Virus record (IMG/VR): IMGVR_UViG_2534682160_000014
Origin: a virus
Lineage: Duplodnaviria > Heunggongvirae > Uroviricota > Caudoviricetes
Direction: 5' to 3' (one strand)
DNA length: 9,907 nt
Shown piece after piece: positions 1,739-9,359 of the stretch (the first letter of the stretch is position 1; each line of letters starts with the position of its first letter). Position numbers and translations under genes: made by a program. The notes beneath the pieces were generated by a model. It ran no database searches. It was not told the origin of the DNA and saw nothing but the letters and a program-made list of their open reading frames with translations.

Positions 1739-1944
1739 ATGGAAGCAATCAAAAAAGTCATCTTTCGCCAGGAAGTAAAAAACTTATCCATATTAAGGCA
1801 GACAGCACGCTGCAAAGCATGATCAACGCCGGAGAATTCCCGCAGGGTTTTCGTGTCGGTTTGCGCCGTCGCGGATGGTATGAGGAAGACGTAATCGCAT
1901 GGATGAAAGAACGCGAACAAGAAGCGCGCGGAACGACCGCTTAA
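1739..1944 (+). pseudogene. alpA: AlpA-family (phage transcriptional regulator) gene, apparently disrupted by a 1-nt frameshift in an A6 tract, or a sequencing error at the homopolymer
   Basis: ATG at 1739 with an SD (GAGGT, 1726-1730) opens a frame reading MEAIKKVIFRQEVKN... that stops at TGA 1820-1822. The AlpA-like HTH and C-terminus (…DSTLQSMINAGEFPQGFRVGLRRRGWYEEDVIAWMKERE…) are in the -1 frame, open from 1688 to TAA 1942-1944 but with no ATG/GTG/TTG start upstream of 1819. The frames can be joined at A6 (1777-1782); one extra A gives a continuous 68-aa AlpA-like protein. Confidence 0.55.
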
Positions 1945-1969
1945 CATATATAGGGCAAATGATGAACAT

Positions 1970-1995
1970 AAAAAAAGCGGCCCCGAAATGGAGCC
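1970..1995 (-). terminator. Probable intrinsic terminator for the leftward operon ending at 2066
   Basis: On the minus strand: GGCUCC-AUUUC-GGGGCC hairpin (includes a G-U pair) followed by a U7 run (plus-strand A-run 1970-1976). Lies ~70 nt downstream of the minus-strand stop at 2066-2068. Confidence 0.4.
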
Positions 1996-2065
1996 ACCTT
2001 TCTGAACAATTAACCCGCTGCGCCGTATGTGTCAACAATCATAAGCCTGGGCATGATAACCGCGA

Positions 2066-2269
2066 TCAGGCTGGTGGGCAATTATCTTTCTTGTTGGGGC
2101 CGTATTGTGCTGCCATTTTCATCCGTTCAGAACGTGAATATTTTTTTAGAAACTCATCAAGGACAAAAGCGCATGGTGCGAATCTTTCTGATTCATGCTC
2201 GAGCGCCATATTTTCGTGCTCTCTGTTCGTTTTTTGCGATGGTGTATCGATTGATTCTTTATTGGTCAT
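2066..2269 (-). CDS. Hypothetical small protein (67 aa), second gene of leftward module B; paralog of the 2720..2947 product
   Basis: ORF MTNKES…NCPPA. The start ATG is 9 nt downstream of the conserved 44-nt element. It shares the MTN start and an internal C-A-x-x-x-x-E-x-L block with the 75-aa paralog. Confidence 0.5.
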   Translation of the reverse strand: MTNKESIDTPSQKTNREHENMALEHESERFAPCAFVLDEFLKKYSRSERMKMAAQYGPNKKDNCPPA

Positions 2270-2277
2270 TGTGTGTA

Positions 2278-2321
2278 CCTGTAAAGCAATGCGCCGTAGT
2301 ACCTCACGCCACGGCGCTGAT
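2278..2321 (-). repeat. Conserved 44-nt intergenic hairpin element, copy 1 (between the RHH stop and the small-protein start)
   Basis: mRNA sense: AUCAGCGCCGUGGCGUGAGGUACUACGGCGCAUUGCUUUACAGG. 7-bp stem GCGCCGU/ACGGCGC, 13-nt loop containing GAGGU. Matches 2956-2999 at 43 of 44 positions, with identical placement (begins 5 nt after the upstream stop, ends 9 nt before the downstream ATG). Confidence 0.7.
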
Positions 2322-2326
2322 GTTTT

Positions 2327-2500
2327 TTATCCTTTGGGTTCAATACCGCGTTGCTGTAATTCTTTTCGGAGTACTCGCTTGATCCAGGTGGCTAAAGAAG
2401 TGTCACCGTCTGCTTTCGCTGCCTCTTCAAGTTGTGCTCTGAATTCTTCTGGTAGCCGCATTTGGTATGGAGGCGATCGCTTTTTCAATGGTGTTGACAT
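2327..2500 (-). CDS. Arc/Mnt-like ribbon-helix-helix transcriptional repressor (57 aa)
   Basis: Not in the ORF track (short). Translation from ATG (complement of 2498-2500): MSTPLKKRSPPYQMRLPEEFRAQLEEAAKADGDTSLATWIKRVLRKELQQRGIEPKG. The PYQMRLPEEF beta-strand followed by two helices matches the Arc-type RHH pattern. The start codon sits inside a palindromic operator. Confidence 0.7.
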   Translation of the reverse strand: MSTPLKKRSPPYQMRLPEEFRAQLEEAAKADGDTSLATWIKRVLRKELQQRGIEPKG

Positions 2501-2546
2501 GGTAATTACCCTTAATTACTATAGTTACATGGTAATTACCATTGTA
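2494..2546. promoter_or_regulatory. Divergent promoter/operator region of module B
   Basis: Perfect 10-bp palindrome ggtaattacc at 2501-2510 and 2531-2540 (each preceded by acat), plus a partial copy taattac at 2514-2520. Plus strand: TTGACA (2494-2499) - 17 bp - TACTAT (2517-2522). Minus strand: TTGTTT (2568..2563) - 16 bp - TACAAT (2546..2541). Operators overlap both promoters and the RHH start codon. Confidence 0.6.
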
Positions 2547-2562
2547 CTTACCGTTATACAAA

Positions 2563-2609
2563 AAACAACGCCCCGCAGTGGTGGCTCACATACGGGGCGT
2601 CTAACCAAA
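2563..2609. repeat. Conserved hairpin element M2, copy 1; terminator-like on the minus strand and 5' leader on the plus strand
   Basis: Outer stem cgccccg (2569-2575) / cggggcg (2593-2599), inner stem gtg/cac, variable apical loop. On the minus strand it is followed by UUGUUUUUUGU. The paralogous copy at 3303-3349 has identical stems and a different apical loop. Confidence 0.6.
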
Positions 2610-2680
2610 CCATTAATTGAGGTAACGATTATGGCTATAAAAGAGCATAGCTTACTCTTTATACACACACAAACGCCCCG

Positions 2681-2700
2681 GAAACGGAATAATCCGTTTC
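2681..2700. terminator. Hairpin (8-bp stem gaaacgga / tccgtttc, loop ATAA) just downstream of the 2720..2947 minus-strand gene; possible terminator or attenuator
   Basis: Perfect inverted repeat seen directly. U/G-rich sequence follows on the minus strand and a T-rich stretch on the plus strand. Function not resolved. Confidence 0.35.
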
Positions 2701-2719
2701 ATAGTTCGGTTTTGTGTAC

Positions 2720-2947
2720 TCATCCTGGCGGGCGATTCTTACGGGACTTTAGCCGCCGTGGGCAGCTTGCTAAAAATGCCTCCAACGCGAATAGTCCAGG
2801 TTTCATTTCTATCGGTATTAGTTGGATATTCAGAGGATTAGCCAGTTCGGCTTCAAGGCGAGCACAGGTTTCTAACTGCCTTTGCCGAATGATTTCATCT
2901 TCTTGCGTCTGCGTGTCTTGTATTGGTGATAGTGTGTTGTTGGTCAT
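2720..2947 (-). CDS. Hypothetical small protein (75 aa), second gene of leftward module A; paralog of the 2066..2269 product
   Basis: ORF MTNNTLSPIQ…; the ATG is 9 nt downstream of the conserved 44-nt element copy 2. Confidence 0.5.
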   Translation of the reverse strand: MTNNTLSPIQDTQTQEDEIIRQRQLETCARLEAELANPLNIQLIPIEMKPGLFALEAFLASCPRRLKSRKNRPPG

Positions 2948-2955
2948 GGTACTGC

Positions 2956-2999
2956 CCTGTAAAGCAATGCGCCGTAGTACCTCACACCACGGCGCTGAT
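2956..2999 (-). repeat. Conserved 44-nt intergenic hairpin element, copy 2
   Basis: Differs from copy 1 at a single loop position (GGUGUGAGG vs GGCGUGAGG in mRNA sense). Same spacing to the flanking stop and start codons. Confidence 0.7.
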
Positions 3000-3004
3000 A
3001 GTGA

Positions 3005-3184
3005 TTATTCTGATTCTTTGGCCTTGCGGCGCTGGCGGCGTTTGATCTCGCCTTTTGCTGCCGTAACTAGAAATCCGGCGGTACTTTCGCCAGGTTCTTT
3101 AAGTTGCTCAATATCGGTCATTACCTCATGCGGGATTCTGACCGTTGTCATTTGTGATTTTGCGTTCTTTGCACCTGTTGCCAT
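3005..3184 (-). CDS. Ribbon-helix-helix-like small DNA-binding protein (59 aa), first gene of leftward module A
   Basis: ATG (complement of 3182-3184) preceded by SD AGGAGAA. Translation MATGAKNAKSQMTTVRIPHEVMTDIEQLKEPGESTAGFLVTAAKGEIKRRQRRKAKESE has a beta-strand (TVRIP) plus two-helix pattern and a basic tail. The 220-aa track ORF 3005..3667 is a spurious upstream extension. Confidence 0.6.
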   Translation of the reverse strand: MATGAKNAKSQMTTVRIPHEVMTDIEQLKEPGESTAGFLVTAAKGEIKRRQRRKAKESE

Positions 3185-3204
3185 TTCTGGTTCTCCTGAT
3201 AATC

Positions 3205-3297
3205 GGTGTATTTCAGTATACGCAAAAAAAAAGATAAAAAAAGTCTTGCGGTGTATTTCACTTGAATGTAGATTTAAAAATGAAGGTGAAATACACC
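3205..3297. promoter_or_regulatory. Divergent promoter/operator region of module A
   Basis: ggtgtatttca at 3205-3215; ggtgtatttcac at 3250-3261 with its perfect inverted partner gtgaaatacacc at 3286-3297 (24-bp spacer). Plus strand: TTGCGG (3246-3251) - 17 bp - TAGATT (3269-3274). The operator sequence is different from module B. Confidence 0.55.
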
Positions 3298-3302
3298 TAA
3301 AA

Positions 3303-3349
3303 CAACAACGCCCCGCAGTGATGGGAACACATACGGGGCGTCTAACCAA
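3303..3349. repeat. Conserved hairpin element M2, copy 2
   Basis: cgccccg (3309-3315) / cggggcg (3334-3340) with inner gtg/cac. T-rich on the minus-strand 3' side. Followed on the plus strand by an SD (GAGGAG) and the ATG at 3371. Confidence 0.6.
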
Positions 3350-3370
3350 CAACGTAAACGAGGAGCCGTT

Positions 3371-3571
3371 ATGGTTGCCGTAAATCATACCCCACACCTT
3401 GTACACACACAAACTGCCTTTGTGTGGCGTTTTCTGGCACTGAGTGCCGGAGAATCTCAAATCATCCACGTAACCGCCTGGACGGAACGCGAAGCGCGTA
3501 ACCGTTGCCCGTCCGGTTGTGTTGCTGTATTTGCCGCCCGTATTCGCCAGGGGGAAACCTATGCACAATAA
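3371..3571 (+). CDS. Possible leader ORF (66 aa) at the head of the rightward operon
   Basis: ATG with a good SD. The N-terminus MVAVNHTPHLVHTQT parallels MAIKEHSLLFIHTQT at the equivalent site in module B (ATG 2631). The rest has no recognisable features and overlaps the next gene's start. Coding status uncertain. Confidence 0.3.
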   Translation: MVAVNHTPHLVHTQTAFVWRFLALSAGESQIIHVTAWTEREARNRCPSGCVAVFAARIRQGETYAQ

Positions 3572-4254: not shown

Positions 4255-4554
4255 ATGAAACTTAAATATTCTGGCTTAACTGCCAGTGGCAACACTCACC
4301 CTAAATTTACGCGCGGTGATATTTACCGCGACCAGTACGGCGGCACGGTAATGATTAAGGGCGTGGCGGGACGGTGCGTAACTTACCGCCGTGAAGGTTA
4401 CGAATATGATTGCGTGATGCCTGTTTATCAGTTCCGGCGTGATTTTTCTCTGGTACAGACCGCGCCGCATAACGTGCCCACCAGCAACGCCAGCGCACGG
4501 GCAAACATCCAGAAGCTGAAAACCATGATTAACGGATTCAGGGGTAAAAAATGA
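4255..4554 (+). CDS. Hypothetical protein (99 aa)
   Basis: ATG 4255 with upstream GGAGAA. The stop overlaps the rep start (ATGA at 4551-4554), indicating translational coupling. Confidence 0.55.
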   Translation: MKLKYSGLTASGNTHPKFTRGDIYRDQYGGTVMIKGVAGRCVTYRREGYEYDCVMPVYQFRRDFSLVQTAPHNVPTSNASARANIQKLKTMINGFRGKK

Positions 4555-5960
4555 AACTGGCACCGAACGTAAAACGATTACCGAAAGATAAATACACCGA
4601 TGCGATTATTTTTGCGGGTATTGATGCTCATTCATTCGCAGAGCATTACATCATTGCACAGGCCAAAAAAGCAGGCGATCCAGTCCCTCCCGTTTATCTG
4701 GGGCGTTATCAGTTAAGCGAACTGGATAACCTCCAGATTGTTGATGATGGGCGATACAGGGCGACGGTGATACGTGCCGGAAATATTGAAGAGCCGCAGC
4801 TGTTAACCATCGCCACGAAACTGGCGATCGCCGGAGTCCAGGAGGCGCGGCTACTTTCTGAAAATTTAGAATTGCTGGAGGAATGGAGCGACCAGCTTCC
4901 ACGGCTTAGGGAGGCATGGGAACGCGGGGAAAGCCTGGTCATGAAAAAAATCCCCCAGCGAAAAACCAAGCTACCGATGAGCGTTGGATCTACCGGATAC
5001 GACACACAGCTTGATTACGTGGTAAAGGGGATTATTCCGGCATCGTCGCTTTGCAGCATATACGGGGCGAGCGGTTCCTATAAATCATTCCTTGCCGGAT
5101 CGTGGGCGTGTCACGTTTCCACGGGCCGCCAGTGGGGAGGCCGCAGGGTGGCGCATGGCGCTGTTCTCTATGTGGTTGGTGAAGGCGGTATAGGCGTTCC
5201 GCGTCGTGTAAAAGCCTGGGAGGTTGTGCACGATGAGCAGGTGAAAAATCTGTATCTGGTAAACCGTCCCATCTTTCCGGCTGCCCCGCTTGATATTGAT
5301 GAAATGGTTATCGCTGCCAGCCAGGTGGAGCGGGAAACGGGTAAACCGGTCCGAATGATTATTCTGGATACGCTGGCGCGTTGCTTTGGCGGCAATGATG
5401 AAAATGATTCCCGTGATATGGGGGCGTTTATCCGTGGGTGTGACGAACTGAAACGGCGCACAGGGGCCACGGTGCTGGTGGTTCACCATTCCGGCAAGGA
5501 TGAGACGAAAGGCGCGCGCGGTTCCAGTGCATTTCGTGCATCACTGGATGCTGAATACCGGATACGCAGGGAGGACGCAGGAAGCGAAGCGCTGGTTATC
5601 TCATGCACCAAAATGAAGGACGCGGAGGAACTCAAAGAAGCCGCATATGACTTACGCGTGGTGGAGCTTTTTACCGACGCTGACGGTGAGTTAATCACGT
5701 CGCTGGTGGTGGTGGATAAGCCGCGCCCTCCCGTTGAACTGGAGCGCATCGAGGAGGCAGGGAACAAGACGGAGAATCACGCCGCGCTATGGCAGTGCAT
5801 CAGAACACGAACAGCACACGGGGAGGCGTGCACTATCGCCCTTCTCCGCGACGATATGAAAAAGCTGGGGTATGAGATGAAGCACTTCCGGCGCTGGCTG
5901 TACAAGCTGGAAAATGATGGCGTAATCGTTATTGACGGTGATGACGTGCGCCCGCTGTAA
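4551..5960 (+). CDS. Replication initiator / helicase-like ATPase (RepA / AAA_25-like, RecA-fold) of the island
   Basis: 469 aa. P-loop-like GASGSYKS (5064-5087), and HHSGKDETKGARGSSAF, a motif typical of RepA/DnaB-like AAA_25 ATPases. An iteron array starts immediately downstream of the stop. Confidence 0.75.
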   Translation: MKLAPNVKRLPKDKYTDAIIFAGIDAHSFAEHYIIAQAKKAGDPVPPVYLGRYQLSELDNLQIVDDGRYRATVIRAGNIEEPQLLTIATKLAIAGVQEARLLSENLELLEEWSDQLPRLREAWERGESLVMKKIPQRKTKLPMSVGSTGYDTQLDYVVKGIIPASSLCSIYGASGSYKSFLAGSWACHVSTGRQWGGRRVAHGAVLYVVGEGGIGVPRRVKAWEVVHDEQVKNLYLVNRPIFPAAPLDIDEMVIAASQVERETGKPVRMIILDTLARCFGGNDENDSRDMGAFIRGCDELKRRTGATVLVVHHSGKDETKGARGSSAFRASLDAEYRIRREDAGSEALVISCTKMKDAEELKEAAYDLRVVELFTDADGELITSLVVVDKPRPPVELERIEEAGNKTENHAALWQCIRTRTAHGEACTIALLRDDMKKLGYEMKHFRRWLYKLENDGVIVIDGDDVRPL

Positions 5961-6165
5961 AAAGTGGGGAGTAAAAGTGGGGAGAGTGGGGGATTTAACA
6001 AAATTGAAACATAATTACCCACTTTCCCACCTGTATACACCCAAAAAAGTGGGGAGTAAAAAACATATTGAAAAACATAACGTTAGAATCACAAAAAAAA
6101 GAGGTGGGGAGACGGTGGGTAATTTCAAAAAGTGGGGAGCAAAAGTGGGGAGTAGTGGGGAATGA
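5960..6165 (+). repeat. Iteron-type replication origin (ori)
   Basis: Eight or more direct copies of (A)AAAGTGGGGAG and variants at about 5963, 5976, 5985, 6048, 6103, 6131, 6145 and 6154; one inverted partial copy (cccacttt, 6018-6025); AT-rich spacers at 6001-6017 and 6057-6100. Positioned directly 3' of rep. Confidence 0.75.
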
Positions 6166-6413
6166 ACAGAAAAACCAGAGATAAGACAGCGCCAAAATAT
6201 AAAGCGTTAGACATGACAGAGCACGCCTTAAAGGTGGCAATCAGAACGATAGACCGCCACGCGGGGGAAGGATACGCGAAGGAACATCCCGACCTGATAA
6301 GCGCATTCATGACCACAGCAGCGGCAAACTTTGCCACGCTGACAGAACGGGAGATTGCCGAAGCGGAACAGGTAACAACCATCAACGTTAAAACCGGAGA
6401 GGGGGCAGTATGA
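6162..6413 (+). CDS. Hypothetical protein (83 aa)
   Basis: ATG 6162 lies inside the last iteron (GGAG 8 nt upstream). The stop overlaps the ssb start (ATGA at 6410-6413). Confidence 0.5.
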   Translation: MNRKTRDKTAPKYKALDMTEHALKVAIRTIDRHAGEGYAKEHPDLISAFMTTAAANFATLTEREIAEAEQVTTINVKTGEGAV

Positions 6414-6820
6414 CGGCACAGATAGCCGCTTACGGGCGGCTGGTGGACGACCCGCAGGTAAAACAGACCAGCAAGGGCACACCAATGACGCTGGCTCGTA
6501 TGGCGGTATCGCTGCCATGCAGCCAGGCACAGGACGGACAGGCGACGTTATGGCTGTCGGTCATCGCATTTGGCAAGCAGGCCGACTACCTGGCTAAACA
6601 TCAAAAAGGCGATGTTGCCAGCGTATCCGGCACGATACAGGTTAGCCAGTGGACCGGACAGAACGGGGAAACGCGGCAGGGTTATCAGGTTATCGCAGAC
6701 AGTGTAATCAGTGCCAGTGCTGCCCGTCCTGGCGGGAGCCGACGCAAGACCACAGGCACACAGGGTAATCAGCCACCAGCTGGAGGCGATGACCCCTACG
6801 GTGACAATATTCCTTTCTGA
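6410..6820 (+). CDS. ssb: Single-stranded DNA-binding protein
   Basis: 136 aa. OB-fold-like N-terminal region (…GRLVDDPQVKQT…WLSVIAFGKQADYLAKHQKGD…), Gly/Pro-rich linker, and an acidic C-terminal tail DDPYGDNIPF matching the SSB DDDIPF-type tip. Confidence 0.8.
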   Translation: MTAQIAAYGRLVDDPQVKQTSKGTPMTLARMAVSLPCSQAQDGQATLWLSVIAFGKQADYLAKHQKGDVASVSGTIQVSQWTGQNGETRQGYQVIADSVISASAARPGGSRRKTTGTQGNQPPAGGDDPYGDNIPF

Positions 6821-7279: not shown

Positions 7280-7474
7280 ATGCCAGAGAACAACACCAGA
7301 AAGCCGGATAAAAGTGCCACGGTACACATAGACGCCGGAACTATGGAGAAGATCGAACGCTATCAGCAGTTCATCAAAGATAATCACCCGGGTATGCCAG
7401 TACCCACGAAAGGACAAATCACACGCAGCGCGGTTGAATACTGGTACCAGGCAACGTTAGGAGCCTGGCTATGA
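7280..7474 (+). CDS. Hypothetical small protein (64 aa; the track ORF starts at 7247), translationally coupled to the protease
   Basis: ATG 7280 with SD GGAGG 7 nt upstream. The stop overlaps the protease start (ATGA at 7471-7474). Function unknown; a small DNA-binding role is only a guess. Confidence 0.5.
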   Translation: MPENNTRKPDKSATVHIDAGTMEKIERYQQFIKDNHPGMPVPTKGQITRSAVEYWYQATLGAWL

Positions 7475-8070
7475 AAACATGGTTTTCCATTAAGGCTATG
7501 GCAGATGTTGTCTATGTGCGTATTTATGACGAGATCGGCGGGTACGGTGTAAAAGCATCGGCACTTACTGACGAGATCAACGCGTGTGGTAATGCGTCTG
7601 AAATCCATCTTCGCATCCATTCACCTGGTGGCGACATCTTTGAAGGGCTGGCTATCTATAACGCCCTGAAAAATCATCCGGCAAAGAAAATTGTACACAT
7701 TGAAGGCATGGCGGCTTCTATGGCCTCGCTTATTGCCATGTGTGGCGATCACATCGTTATGCCTGAAAACGCGATGATGATGATACATGCCCCCCGTGGT
7801 GTTACTGCCGGAGTGTCGGGCGACGTTCGCCGCTTTGCTGACCTGATGGACAAGCTGGGCGACACGATGGCGGAAACCTACGCCGGAAGAACGGGCAGGA
7901 GCAAACAGGAGATCACCTCAATGATGGAGGCGGAAACCTGGATGGATGGCAATGAGTGTAAGGCTAACGGCTTCGCAGATGAGGTTATACCCGCGATTAC
8001 AGCAATGGCCCGAATTGAATCAAAACGAATCGGAGATTTTTCAAATATGCCGGAAAAATTAAAAGCATGA
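7471..8070 (+). CDS. ClpP-like (S14 family) serine protease; prohead maturation protease
   Basis: 199 aa with ClpP-type motifs: HSPGGDIFEGLAIYNAL, catalytic Ser context GMAASMASLIAM, His context MMMIHAPRG. Immediately precedes the capsid gene with an ATGA overlap. Confidence 0.88.
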   Translation: MKTWFSIKAMADVVYVRIYDEIGGYGVKASALTDEINACGNASEIHLRIHSPGGDIFEGLAIYNALKNHPAKKIVHIEGMAASMASLIAMCGDHIVMPENAMMMIHAPRGVTAGVSGDVRRFADLMDKLGDTMAETYAGRTGRSKQEITSMMEAETWMDGNECKANGFADEVIPAITAMARIESKRIGDFSNMPEKLKA

Positions 8071-9359
8071 TCAGCCAGAAAACTGGCAGTGGCGAACAGG
8101 AACGACTTAACGGAATCCGTGAATTGTTTGGCACCTTCAACGGAAGATATAACGACCTGGCTATAAGTTGTCTTGCGGATTCAGAATGTAGCGTTGAGAA
8201 TGCACGCGAACGCCTTTTACTCGCTATGGGTAAAGAATCAACGCCAACAAACAAAACCACCCCCGCAAATCTTTACTACGCGTACACGGGTAACGGCAAT
8301 ATAACCGGCGATGCCATGCGTCAGGGGCTTAATGCGCGTCTTGGTCACGAACGGGCCGAACGCGGTAATCCTTACGCCATGATGAGCCTTTTCGATATGG
8401 CACAGGCATCATTAACCCATCGTGGTATAAGCACGGGCAGCTACAGCACACGCTCGCAGATAGTAAACGCGGCATTCACCCACAGCAGCAGCGATTTTAC
8501 CGATATCCTTGCTGGTGGCGCTGAAAAATCAGTGCTTGCAGGCTGGGAGCACAGCGGCGAAACATTCCGCCAGTGGACGAAAAAAGGTTCCCTTTCAAAC
8601 TTCCGGGAAGCCCGCCGCGTTGGTATGAATGGCTTCTCAACGTTAAACAAAGTGCCGGAAGGGGCAGAATATAAATACATCACCACCAGCGATCGCGGTG
8701 AACCCATCGCGCTGGCTACTTACGGGAATATTTTCAGCATTACCCGCCAGGCGATAATCAATGATGACCTTGATCAGTTATCAACGGTGCCAATGGCTAT
8801 GGGCCGTGCAGCATCAAGAACGGTGGGAAATCTGGTTAATCTGATGCTTACAAGCAACGTAAAACTTTCTGACGGAATAACGCTGTTTGACAAAAAACAC
8901 AGCAACCTGATTGAAGCAGGACTGACAACACCGGGACTTAGTGCAGCACGTCACCTGATGCGCACACAGAAGGACAAAAATGGCGAAGTGCTGAATATTG
9001 CGCCTAAATTCCTTTTAGTTCCGGCAGCACTGGAAGATCGCGCGTTGCAGATGATTAACTCAACCGCACCTTTCGGGGCTGATAAAAACAGCGGGATCTT
9101 TAACCCGTATCACAAGCTACTTGATATCATCGTCGATCCCCGCCTTGATGATATCAGCGAAAAACAATGGTACATGCTTTCCGCACAGGGAACGGACACA
9201 ATCGAGGTGGCTTATCTTGATGGCAATGACGAGCCTTACCTTGAACAGCAGGAAGGTTTTATCGTTGACGGCGTGGCCTGGAAAGTCCGTATTGATGCAG
9301 GTGTGGCAGCTCTGGATTATCGCGGTATGGTCAAATCAGGCGGGACAGATTCACTATGA
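8067..9359 (+). CDS. Major capsid protein, HK97-fold family (probably with N-terminal delta/scaffold-like region)
   Basis: 430 aa, directly downstream of and overlapping the prohead protease gene, which is the usual protease-capsid order in HK97-like head modules. Size and position support the call; the fold assignment is by family knowledge, not a search. Confidence 0.75.
   Translation: MISQKTGSGEQERLNGIRELFGTFNGRYNDLAISCLADSECSVENARERLLLAMGKESTPTNKTTPANLYYAYTGNGNITGDAMRQGLNARLGHERAERGNPYAMMSLFDMAQASLTHRGISTGSYSTRSQIVNAAFTHSSSDFTDILAGGAEKSVLAGWEHSGETFRQWTKKGSLSNFREARRVGMNGFSTLNKVPEGAEYKYITTSDRGEPIALATYGNIFSITRQAIINDDLDQLSTVPMAMGRAASRTVGNLVNLMLTSNVKLSDGITLFDKKHSNLIEAGLTTPGLSAARHLMRTQKDKNGEVLNIAPKFLLVPAALEDRALQMINSTAPFGADKNSGIFNPYHKLLDIIVDPRLDDISEKQWYMLSAQGTDTIEVAYLDGNDEPYLEQQEGFIVDGVAWKVRIDAGVAALDYRGMVKSGGTDSL

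Follow-up and report, generated by a model that had tools for sequence, protein, structure and literature searches.

The question that this locus raises is what a 200-bp "intergenic" stretch full of short repeats does directly after rep, a gene for a predicted initiator-helicase. The sequence-only reading of the window (the whole stretch of viral DNA analyzed here, 9,907 nt) had taken these repeats for an iteron origin in the "classic satellite and plasmid arrangement." From comparison with related islands, we conclude that an E. coli phage-satellite island very probably has its replication origin in these repeats, and that the arrangement itself is already known. The features on which this conclusion is based are listed in Table 1.

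Table 1. Features of rep, the repeat region, and the adjacent genes in the window.
Feature	Coordinates	Strand	Details
rep, 469-aa initiator-helicase (predicted)	4551–5960	+	Pfam AAA_25, E = 1.9e-43; full-length PHROG 2850 match
Winged-helix-coding part of rep (aa 405–469), proposed iteron reader	5763–5957	+	AF2 pLDDT ~90
Left iteron array, three direct copies	5961–5993	+	exact AAAGTGGGGAG at 5961 and 5974; degenerate copy 5983–5993
AT-rich spacer I	5994–6014	none	
Inverted iterons, dyad left arm	6015–6031	−	AAAGTGGGTAA on the minus strand at 6015–6025; GGTGGG at 6026–6031
Palindrome TGTATACA, proposed first melting point	6032–6039	none	
Central direct iteron, dyad right arm	6046–6056	+	exact AAAGTGGGGAG at 6046
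AT-rich spacer II, ~44 bp, candidate unwinding region	6057–6100	none	GC 0.32–0.37
Right iteron arrays	6101–6162	+	exact AAAGTGGGGAG at 6129 and 6142; degenerate copies 6101–6111, 6112–6122, and 6152–6162
83-aa gene, conserved, PHROG 1231	6162–6413	+	PHROG E = 1e-50; ribosome-binding site and start codon within the last iterons
Island's own single-stranded DNA-binding protein (SSB), likely replicon accessory	6410–6820	+	Pfam SSB, E = 5.7e-17

There are 11 GTGGG cores within 5961–6162 of the window, and 206-bp tiles elsewhere in the window hold no more than two such cores each, compared with 11 in 5960–6165. When one mismatch is allowed, AGTGGGGAG is matched 8 times versus the 1.28 matches expected, and none of 200 shuffles reached 8. 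The iterons are ~11 nt long and irregularly spaced, at 9–17 bp. Only five copies are exact, and thus the "eight or more copies" reported previously is correct only if degenerate copies are counted, of which there are four in direct orientation. The "one inverted partial copy" described at the same time is in fact two adjacent inverted copies, and these are not incidental as that description implied but form a strongly conserved dyad. The spacers were rightly called AT-rich, with a GC content of 0.32–0.38 inside the region compared with ~0.5–0.65 in the flanks. The rep stop codon TAA is at 5958–5960 and the first iteron begins at 5961, in agreement with the placement of the array directly after the rep stop, and in all relatives examined the array starts at or inside the rep stop codon. 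At the other end, the final core (6155–6160) adjoins the ATG at 6162, the iteron at 6152–6162 overlaps that ATG, and GGAG of the preceding iteron (6149–6152) is 9 nt 5′ of the ATG, which is a workable Shine-Dalgarno position, so the last iterons do overlap the Shine-Dalgarno sequence and start of the next gene as had been stated. A 45-nt block of three iterons is duplicated (5959–6003 and 6127–6171, 82% identity). The left iterons (5961–5993 and 6015–6056) and the right iterons (6101–6162) flank AT-rich spacer II, in which AAAAACATA is present twice, and relatives have an AT-rich gap at the same place. Elsewhere in the window we find no other repeat cluster or AT-rich gap. An exact AGTGGGGAG at 5131–5139 within rep codes for the conserved QWGG motif and is taken to be coincidental.

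The most conserved feature of the region is the dyad, which consists of an inverted iteron, 24–26 bp centered on TGTATACA, and a direct iteron, with TGTATACA exactly halfway between the inverted core (6018–6022) and the central direct core (6049–6053). An inverted iteron is present at the dyad position in 66 of 77 relatives, and the core-to-core gap is 22–26 bp in 63 of these 66, with 24 bp in 56. The center of the gap in these 63 relatives is (T)GTATA(T/C)A, regardless of the iteron sequence. The variable base of the inverted copies changes together with that of the direct copies (CCCAC to CTCAC) in relatives whose Rep has Asn at the position discussed below.

Rep itself has three modules: an N-terminal domain of ~125–135 aa, a RecA-fold RepA/AAA_25 helicase core (aa 151–318), and a C-terminal domain (aa 405–469) that is predicted to be a winged helix. 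The N-terminal domain (aa 1–135) has no Pfam match even at E ≤10, and AAA_25 is the sole domain found in the protein, with no primase domain recognized. Homologues of Rep carry the RefSeq name "helicase RepA family protein," a search against PDB sequences gave a weak match to RSF1010 RepA (1g8y, E = 0.01), and NCBIfam gave only sub-threshold RadA matches on the core. The Walker A motif is atypical (GASGSYKS) yet invariant. The model of full-length Rep has a mean pLDDT of 64.8 and is of low quality over some of the helicase core, and Foldseek matched it to RAD51/RadA and T7 gp4 cores. Since this search retrieved the RecA core only, we modeled the C-terminal domain separately. The AF2 model of that domain has the topology H-H-H-beta-beta, and its top PDB matches in Foldseek are nearly all winged-helix DNA binders (DtxR/IdeR, LexA-DNA, PcaR, histone H1, and Fur), with a TMq of ~0.6 and a probability of 0.97–0.99 but weak E values of ~0.05. 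In the model, the third helix is N-capped by residue 445, which in the window is His445, encoded by CAC at 5883–5885. We conclude that the helicase of Rep is of the RecA-fold type (RepA/AAA_25), unlike the SF3 type of SaPI Reps.

Comparison of ~80 related islands, with a site finder that presumed the frame GTGNG, suggests that one Rep residue sets which repeat sequence Rep recognizes. Residue 445 predicts base 4 of GTGNGG in 65 of 65 Enterobacterales elements, where His (10 elements) and Lys (27) go with G, Asn (21) goes with A, and Ser (7) goes with C. In a set of seven E. coli Reps, position 445 alone consistently separates the two iteron types (His versus Asn). P0086, a His-type Rep that was retrieved after the rule had been set, has GTGGG iterons that match the prediction, and P0118, a "GRKGF" Rep for which there was no prior prediction, has GTGCGC, where base 4 is C as in the RKSF (Ser) class. 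In relatives with an 80–96% identical rep, the iteron positions are kept, and 8–9 of 11 copies, including the inverted ones, are GTGAG and not GTGGG. As judged by these comparisons, all iteron copies of an element change together, inverted copies included. When placed on a helicase-core tree, the residue and base characters change ~8–9 times. The covariation is correlative, and since the winged helix and the origin adjoin and recombination can co-inherit both, the number of truly independent switches may differ from this count.

The repeats also vary as a unit with rep from island to island. The downstream gene and SSB of the window are shared by more than 1000 E. coli genomes that do not share its rep or its repeats. 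The same gap holds TAACCCGCA iterons after a DUF927 protein in island L002, CTGTCTACC iterons after a primase-family protein in L003, and P4-type CTGTTCACC iterons after another primase-family protein in L006. Homology to islands with other replication proteins breaks or resumes at the right edge of the array (6155–6170), while the DUF4222 gene on the upstream side and the 83-aa gene on the downstream side remain conserved, with 80–92% DNA identity, where the repeats differ completely. The SSB gene comes after the origin in most relatives. Of all the genes, rep is the only one with which the repeats are exchanged, and an exchangeable replicon cassette of the satellite family can be defined that extends from approximately rep codon 125 through the last iteron. 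The Rep-iteron cognate specificity that had been predicted for this locus is therefore supported by comparison in three ways: the swapping of rep and repeats together, the concerted change of the iterons, and the covariation with residue 445.

The island that carries this cassette is ~9.6 kb long, is located between tRNA-Pro/yejM and yejO, and has att-like repeats at both ends in L001. It has the characteristics that define a phage-inducible chromosomal island (PICI), including its own integrase (1–1242), a specific att site, transcription in the rightward direction, and a length within the PICI range of ~9–15 kb. This rep and origin recur in the named PICI EcCI11128, where 3 of 236 nt differ, and the island is of the EcCI11128 type with the yejM/tRNA-Pro att site that is listed in PMC6092414. 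The rep-ori DNA had no match in a phage collection and five partial matches among plasmids, none with ≥80% query coverage, and thus the replicon corresponds to no phage or plasmid replicon already known. A literature search with the iteron string and "iteron" found nothing, the text portion of the PMC6092414 supplement has no iteron sequences, and the cf-PICI paper does not discuss origins. An Rfam scan of the whole window found no RNA family, a promoter scan of 5700–6500 found none, and a terminator scan of the same interval found a single terminator-like site, on the minus strand inside rep and at chance level. Within 5940–6180 there is no DnaA box (≤1 mismatch) and no IHF, Fis, or GATC site, and therefore models of a host-initiator-dependent origin were dropped. 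The single-stranded fold of 5955–6170 is just mildly better than shuffles (z = −1.66), and since its pairing comes from the inverted iterons only, there is no ssi-like hairpin.

Whether these repeats could serve a purpose other than initiation has to be weighed against the same observations. They might bind Rep mainly for control, either in copy-number "handcuffing" or to gate rep read-through into the SSB and capsid genes in the manner of a roadblock or operator, with the true origin elsewhere. The array indeed forms part of a rightward transcription unit, and neither a promoter nor a terminator is predicted in the interval that separates rep from the next gene. In addition, its last iterons overlap the ribosome-binding site and ATG of that gene, and in iteron plasmids direct-repeat arrays have control functions. 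We nevertheless consider this reading unlikely because the window has no second repeat cluster or AT-rich gap and because a conserved dyad with a TA-rich center beside an AT-rich gap is origin-like. In addition, the equivalent region of EcCICFT073 is needed for rep-dependent plasmid replication (PMC6092414), and control and initiation roles can coexist. It is very improbable that the repeats are instead an operator or promoter of the downstream operon bound by a protein other than Rep, such as the 83-aa product of 6162–6413, an AlpA- or PerC-type regulator, or the DUF4222 protein. Their position directly upstream of the next gene and overlapping its start would suit such a function, but both the downstream gene and the DUF4222 gene are 80–92% identical at the DNA level in islands with completely different repeats, the repeat sequence follows one Rep residue in all 65 elements, and the region has no predicted sigma-70-like promoter. 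The 83-aa product in particular is not the iteron reader, since its gene is 92% identical in L002, the iterons of which are unrelated.

We give hardly any credence to a packaging signal (cos or pac) read by a small terminase. Satellites do have packaging signals, and a small-terminase gene is present in some relatives, but the repeats covary and swap with rep and not with the capsid/terminase module, which varies among islands that share this origin, and the L001 copy of the island has no annotated terminase gene. The last possibility, that the repeats are non-functional products of slippage, G-quadruplex-prone low-complexity DNA, or chance, would be in keeping with the many G4 runs on the plus strand and with the mild folding of the single strand. 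Against it are the large excess of repeats over chance and the retention of their positions and orientations across genera while the spacers diverge, and we regard this reading as effectively refuted by the conservation and covariation seen among the relatives. The G-quadruplex version was rejected because GTGAGG of the Asn-type relatives interrupts the G runs, which means that the conserved property is something other than G4 potential. We assign 5961–6162, with considerable confidence, as the probable vegetative replication origin of a PICI.

The features of this origin can be combined in a proposed mechanism. After induction, island Rep would bind the GTGGGG iterons via its C-terminal winged helix, with the N-cap residue of the recognition helix, His445, reading the fourth base of GTGNGG. 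Binding would nucleate at the twofold symmetric core, composed of the inverted iteron at 6015–6025, TGTATACA, and the central direct iteron, and would be strengthened by the flanking direct arrays. Rep, a presumed RecA-fold RepA-like hexameric helicase, would then oligomerize at the core, melt the TA-rich center and/or the adjacent AT-rich spacer II, and load itself as the replicative helicase, and the fork would be completed by island SSB together with host primase and polymerase. We also propose, tentatively and at slightly under an even chance, that the Rep family is a set of natural orthogonal self-loading RecA-fold initiator-helicases. In this proposal, specificity would be reset by single N-cap substitutions of the winged-helix recognition helix, each matched by a concerted iteron change (His/Lys–G, Asn–A, Ser/Gly–C), while the dyad "landing pad," made up of an inverted iteron, a 24-bp stretch with TATATA at its center, and a direct iteron, would stay fixed. 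If residue 445 is causal, H445N would re-target Rep from GTGGGG to GTGAGG origins, and, if the proposal is true, it could account for the coexistence of several such islands in a single cell with no cross-talk in replication; there are up to six related places per E. coli genome. The residue-to-base rule would be usable to predict replication compatibility of co-resident satellites and to build orthogonal Rep/ori pairs, and a probable function is assigned to a stretch that hundreds of E. coli genomes carry, among them those of O157, O111, O26, and O103 STEC strains.

How does this origin compare with known systems? With the classical iteron plasmids (pPS10, F, R6K, and RK2) it shares repeated initiator sites beside an AT-rich region and, as the comparison of relatives suggests, cognate Rep-iteron specificity. 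Those plasmids have Rep_3/RepA-WH1-WH2 initiators, iterons of 17–22 bp, DnaA boxes and/or IHF sites, and an array upstream of rep, whereas Rep here is outside the Rep_3 family, the repeats are short, no DnaA box is present in 5940–6180, and the array is downstream of rep, and for these reasons it is not a classic iteron-plasmid origin. The "classic" arrangement claimed previously thus holds for published PICI and SaPI origins but not for classical iteron plasmids. RSF1010/IncQ RepA has the same ATPase core family, but IncQ divides the work between RepC for iteron binding, RepA as helicase, and RepB as primase at ssi sites (ssiA/ssiB), whereas here iteron reading and helicase are apparently combined in one protein, and none of the ORFs of the window was recognized as a RepC or RepB homologue. 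Phage P4 alpha with its ori/crr shares a modular initiator, a C-terminal origin-binding domain (predicted here), and octamer-class iterons, and P4-type iterons occur only in sister island L006, in the homologous gap. The P4 iteron is TGTTCACC, however, compared with GTGGGG (AAAGTGGGGAG) in the window, the helicase class is also different, and P4 has crr, whereas the window has no separate crr-like second site.

The SaPI Rep-ori systems resemble this origin in layout. In SaPI Reps, a C-terminal winged helix mediates iteron binding (PMC9371898). The shared features are 6–12 iterons directly downstream of the rep ORF and an AT-rich center, and probably also a self-contained initiator-helicase with such a domain (predicted here) that would read 5–6-nt iterons, matched Rep/origin pairs, and opposed iterons around a melting site (proposed here). 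SaPI Reps are SF3/AAA+ helicases, whereas Rep here is RecA-fold (SF4-like), and on present evidence the likeness is one of architecture and not of descent. SaPI origins also have at least two opposed iterons on each side of the AT-rich region (PMC9371898), compared with one conserved opposed pair around TGTATACA here. To the left and right of the larger AT-rich gap (6057–6100), every iteron has the same direction, and since most iterons are direct, the match to the SaPI layout rests on the single dyad. Close counterparts are the Gram-negative PICIs, for which PMC6092414 describes origins directly 3′ of rep with two iteron sets around an AT-rich region, and a rep-ori of EcCICFT073 that drives plasmid replication (Fillol-Salom et al. 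2018). As in EcCICFT073 pri-rep-ori, the origin here directly follows the initiator gene and has an AT-rich region flanked by short iterons, and, as in those PICIs, it belongs to an integrated island with its own integrase, rightward transcription, and exchangeable initiator alleles. The EcCICFT073 initiator is called "Pri-Rep" and likened to P4 alpha in that source, whereas Rep here is a RecA-fold RepA/AAA_25 protein with no recognizable primase domain. The picture of PICI replication is unchanged but is extended to an initiator with a different helicase fold.

Strong comparative evidence supports the view that the repeats following rep are a Rep-specific iteron origin. The 469-codon rep ORF ends in a TAA stop at 5958-5960, the following ORF begins with an ATG at 6162, and the 201-bp gap between them is filled by the iteron array. 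There are 11 GTGGG cores in the 206 bp of the array versus at most 2 in any other equal-sized tile of the window, and the iteron 9-mer, with up to one mismatch allowed, has 8 matches versus 1.28 expected, a number reached by 0 of 200 shuffles. From left to right, the gap opens with three direct copies; 21 bp of AT-rich spacer separate them from two inverted copies, and the palindrome TGTATACA and a single direct copy come next. Beyond another AT-rich spacer, of 44 bp, lie first two and then three more direct copies, the last of which abuts the ATG of the following gene. The outer iteron triplets form a 45-nt direct repeat with 82% identity. The sequence-only reading had placed the repeats, with AT-rich spacers, directly 3′ of the rep stop, and this placement holds, as the first copy begins at 5961 and GC drops to 0.32-0.38 inside the array region. 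It had also counted eight or more copies, and the repeats are there, but only five are exact and the remainder are degenerate or inverted; in place of its one inverted partial copy we find two adjacent inverted copies. Each AT-rich spacer also holds a non-iteron repeat that is kept only in part among E. coli relatives, and AAAAACATA is likewise present twice. The exact AGTGGGGAG within rep, which codes for the conserved QWGG motif, is probably a coincidence.

Coordinates of the repeats and of other features of the island and its relatives (window numbering unless a locus is named)
Feature	Position	Remark
Exact AAAGTGGGGAG copies	5961, 5974, 6046, 6129, 6142	n = 5, direct
Degenerate direct copies	5983-5993, 6101-6111, 6112-6122, 6152-6162	n = 4
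Adjacent inverted copies	6015-6025, 6026-6031	n = 2
Palindrome TGTATACA	6032-6039	
ATTGAAA(AA)CATAA	6003-6016, 6068-6081	one in each AT-rich spacer
AAAAACATA	6059, 6071	
AGTGGGGAG within rep	5131-5139	
P-loop GASGSYKS	5064-5087	Rep aa 172-179
Shared N-terminal segment, window	4551-4940	Rep aa 1-~130
Same, sister island L002	1005-1380	DUF927 protein; iteron, both orientations, TAACCCGCA / TGCGGGTTA
Same, sister island L003	1425-1800	primase-family protein; iteron, both orientations, CTGTCTACC / GGTAGATAG
Same, sister island L006	1312-1700	another primase-family protein; iteron, both orientations, CTGTTCACC / GGTGAACAG (P4-type octamer)
Extended gap after rep, L010	2517-3000	
494-aa ORF	1899-3383 (+)	window-specific part 2353-3324
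Prohead protease ORF	7471-8070	
Major capsid protein ORF	8067-9359	
A-run at protease/capsid junction	8048-8058	

The window is an E. coli chromosomal island of ~9.6 kb that adjoins tRNA-Pro, with yejM on one side, yejO on the other, and att-like repeats at both ends. Its genes run from the integrase through small regulatory genes, DUF4222, and rep to the repeats, and from there to the 83-aa gene (PHROG 1231), SSB, a ClpP-like prohead protease, and the major capsid protein. Phage-inducible chromosomal islands (PICIs) at the same att site are listed in the supplement of Fillol-Salom et al. 2018 (PMC6092414), EcCI11128 among them, and because EcCI11128 carries the same "helicase RepA family" gene and a repeat region with 3 differences from the window over 236 positions, the window element is a catalogued PICI type. 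The repeat region is present in 431 of 5426 complete E. coli genomes. Up to 3 places in a single genome match the origin region and up to 6 match the rep-ori-SSB segment, and therefore co-resident islands are common. The 494-aa ORF flanked by the integrase and the regulatory genes has no match in Pfam, PHROGs, PADLOC, or NCBIfam, and ~970 bp of it stand in for 232 bp of L001, an island copy that is otherwise 98% identical; it is a candidate for accessory or defence cargo. In L001 and other relatives, a single 630-aa ORF encodes the protease fused to the capsid protein. The two are separate in the window, where the A-run at ~8053 is 1 nt shorter (GGAAAAATT vs GGAAAAAATT); a frameshift mutation, a sequencing error, or a slippery site could explain this split.

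When rep, the repeats, and the following gene were together used as the query, 1478 E. coli genomes matched, and in most of them the match begins only at 6155-6170 and runs onward. These islands conserve the DUF4222, 83-aa, and SSB genes, while their replication protein and gap repeats are both different. In pairwise BLAST, the right homology break coincides with the array's right edge (the same 6155-6170), and the left break falls within rep, where the first ~125 residues of Rep have 70-76% identity with the DUF927-type (710-aa) and primase-type (584-605-aa) proteins of sister islands, which are otherwise unrelated to Rep. Since these N-terminal residues are common to other replication-protein types, the exchangeable cassette comprises the repeats together with the Rep helicase core and C-terminal domain. 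To judge from these alignments, the repeats travel with rep and with no other gene.

The repeat positions are kept in all six E. coli relatives whose rep DNA is 80-96% identical to that of the window, and in four of the six GTGAG replaces GTGGG in 8-9 of the 11 copies, inverted ones included. Over the whole Rep alignment, position 445 alone consistently splits the groups: all three GTGGG elements have His there, and all four GTGAG elements have Asn. The C terminus of the L010 Rep differs from that of the window at only four positions. The two N-terminal alleles of RepA-type Reps assort independently of origin type, and because each is found with both iteron types, the N-terminal domain is not what determines iteron type. 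Among 80 Rep homologues from across Enterobacterales, at most a few per species, 65 elements had at least four clear sites, and in every one base 4 of GTGNGG can be predicted from the residue that precedes Phe in the motif K-x-F-x-R-W: His goes with G (GTGGGGA; RKH variants GTGGGGGC; 10 elements), Lys with G (GTGGGGGA; 27), Asn with A (GTGAGGA; 21), and Ser with C (GTGCGGCA; 7). When the two characters are mapped on a neighbor-joining tree built from the helicase core, 8 and 9 changes are counted, so the association is not one inherited event, though some of these changes may stem from recombination involving the winged helix and the origin, which lie side by side. A Rep homologue fetched to test the rule, P0086 (..TKHLKRW, His), has GTGGG iterons as predicted, and another, P0118 (..GRKGFRRW), with no prior prediction, has GTGCGC, whose base 4, C, is that of the RKSF (Ser) class. 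The observed pairings agree with common preferences of amino acids for bases, in which His and Lys go with G and Asn with A. Both the swapping of repeats with rep and the 65/65 tracking of base 4 by residue 445 argue for the Rep-iteron cognate specificity that had been proposed from the sequence alone.

The Xenorhabdus beddingii locus L016 carries a full GTGAGG (Asn-type) array and then, ~225-260 nt past the rep stop, a GTGGGG / ATGGGG run (His-type sequence) that could be a second-origin remnant or a recombination scar. In L010 (E. coli ETEC4090, a RepA-type island), the gap after rep is stretched to ~480 bp and contains additional iterons pointing either way; the usual 83-aa gene and SSB are replaced there by a ProQ/FinO-family gene.

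The C-terminal 65 residues of Rep are modelled as three helices and a beta-hairpin with pLDDT ~90, and in this model His445 immediately precedes the third helix (446-455), the usual recognition helix. The PDB entries that match this model best are DNA-binding domains of the winged-helix type (DtxR/IdeR, LexA-DNA, PcaR, histone H1, and Fur), with TMq ~0.6 and weak E-values. Pfam assigns the helicase core (aa 151-318) to AAA_25 (E=1.9e-43), the structural neighbors of its model are RAD51/RadA and T7 gp4, and the top PDB sequence match is RSF1010 RepA, a weak one (E=0.01); the motor is RecA-fold and SF4-like, not SF3/AAA+. Family searches found no primase domain in Rep. In the P-loop, Tyr occupies the position before Lys that is Gly in the Walker A consensus, and because the motif is identical in 20/20 aligned homologues, this is a conserved deviation and not decay. 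The N-terminal domain, modelled as alpha/beta with pLDDT 70-89, has no family match, Pfam included, and may be a common adaptor, perhaps to the overlapping DUF4222 gene product or to the host or helper replisome.

Whatever the specificity class or genus, the array begins at or within the rep stop codon, and further along come an inverted copy and, at a fixed distance from it, a direct copy. Of the 66 elements in which the search pattern found an inverted copy, 63 have a core-to-core gap of 22-26 bp, including 56 with a gap of exactly 24 bp, and (T)GTATA(T/C)A lies at the centre of the gap; in the window the dyad axis coincides exactly with the centre of TGTATACA. This dyad is the most constrained feature of the repeat region, the outer direct arrays being more variable in copy number, and it is the natural candidate for the site where Rep would assemble symmetrically and melting would begin.

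Binding of the repeats by some regulator other than Rep is improbable, because every neighboring gene stays the same where the repeats change. The repeats are also unlikely to be a packaging site, since the capsid and terminase modules differ among islands that share the same origin. Rep binding could serve control, for instance by handcuffing or by blocking read-through into the following gene, and such a role is compatible with origin function. A G-quadruplex reading was rejected, as the potential to form such structures is not conserved. Searches for an RNA family, a promoter, a terminator, a DnaA box, and IHF, Fis, or Dam sites were negative, and the single-strand structure of the region was not notable.

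We found no published text describing the iteron or the residue-to-base rule, and the figures of PMC6092414 might already draw the origin. PICI origins sit directly 3′ of the gene for the initiator and have iteron sets on both sides of an AT-rich region, and the EcCICFT073 rep-ori has been shown to drive rep-dependent plasmid replication (PMC6092414); the window has this arrangement, with a predicted origin 3′ of rep and iteron sets around an AT-rich region. Membership tests rejected a classical Rep_3 iteron-plasmid origin, a P4 ori, and an IncQ replicon for the window. Of the "classic satellite and plasmid arrangement" in the sequence-only reading, the satellite part stands, with a PICI layout, and the plasmid part does not, the predicted origin not being of the Rep_3 iteron-plasmid kind. 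To the known picture the comparisons would add a single-residue specificity rule, a conserved dyad, and a modular Rep with a family-wide N-terminal domain, which are of modest interest and open to direct testing. SaPIs have 6-12 iterons right after rep that are read by the C-terminal winged helix of Rep (PMC9371898), and the window appears to fit this model, but the SaPI Rep motor is SF3/AAA+, whereas that of the window is RecA-fold and SF4-like, and the window differs from the PICI/SaPI model in that its repeats are mostly direct, around one dyad.
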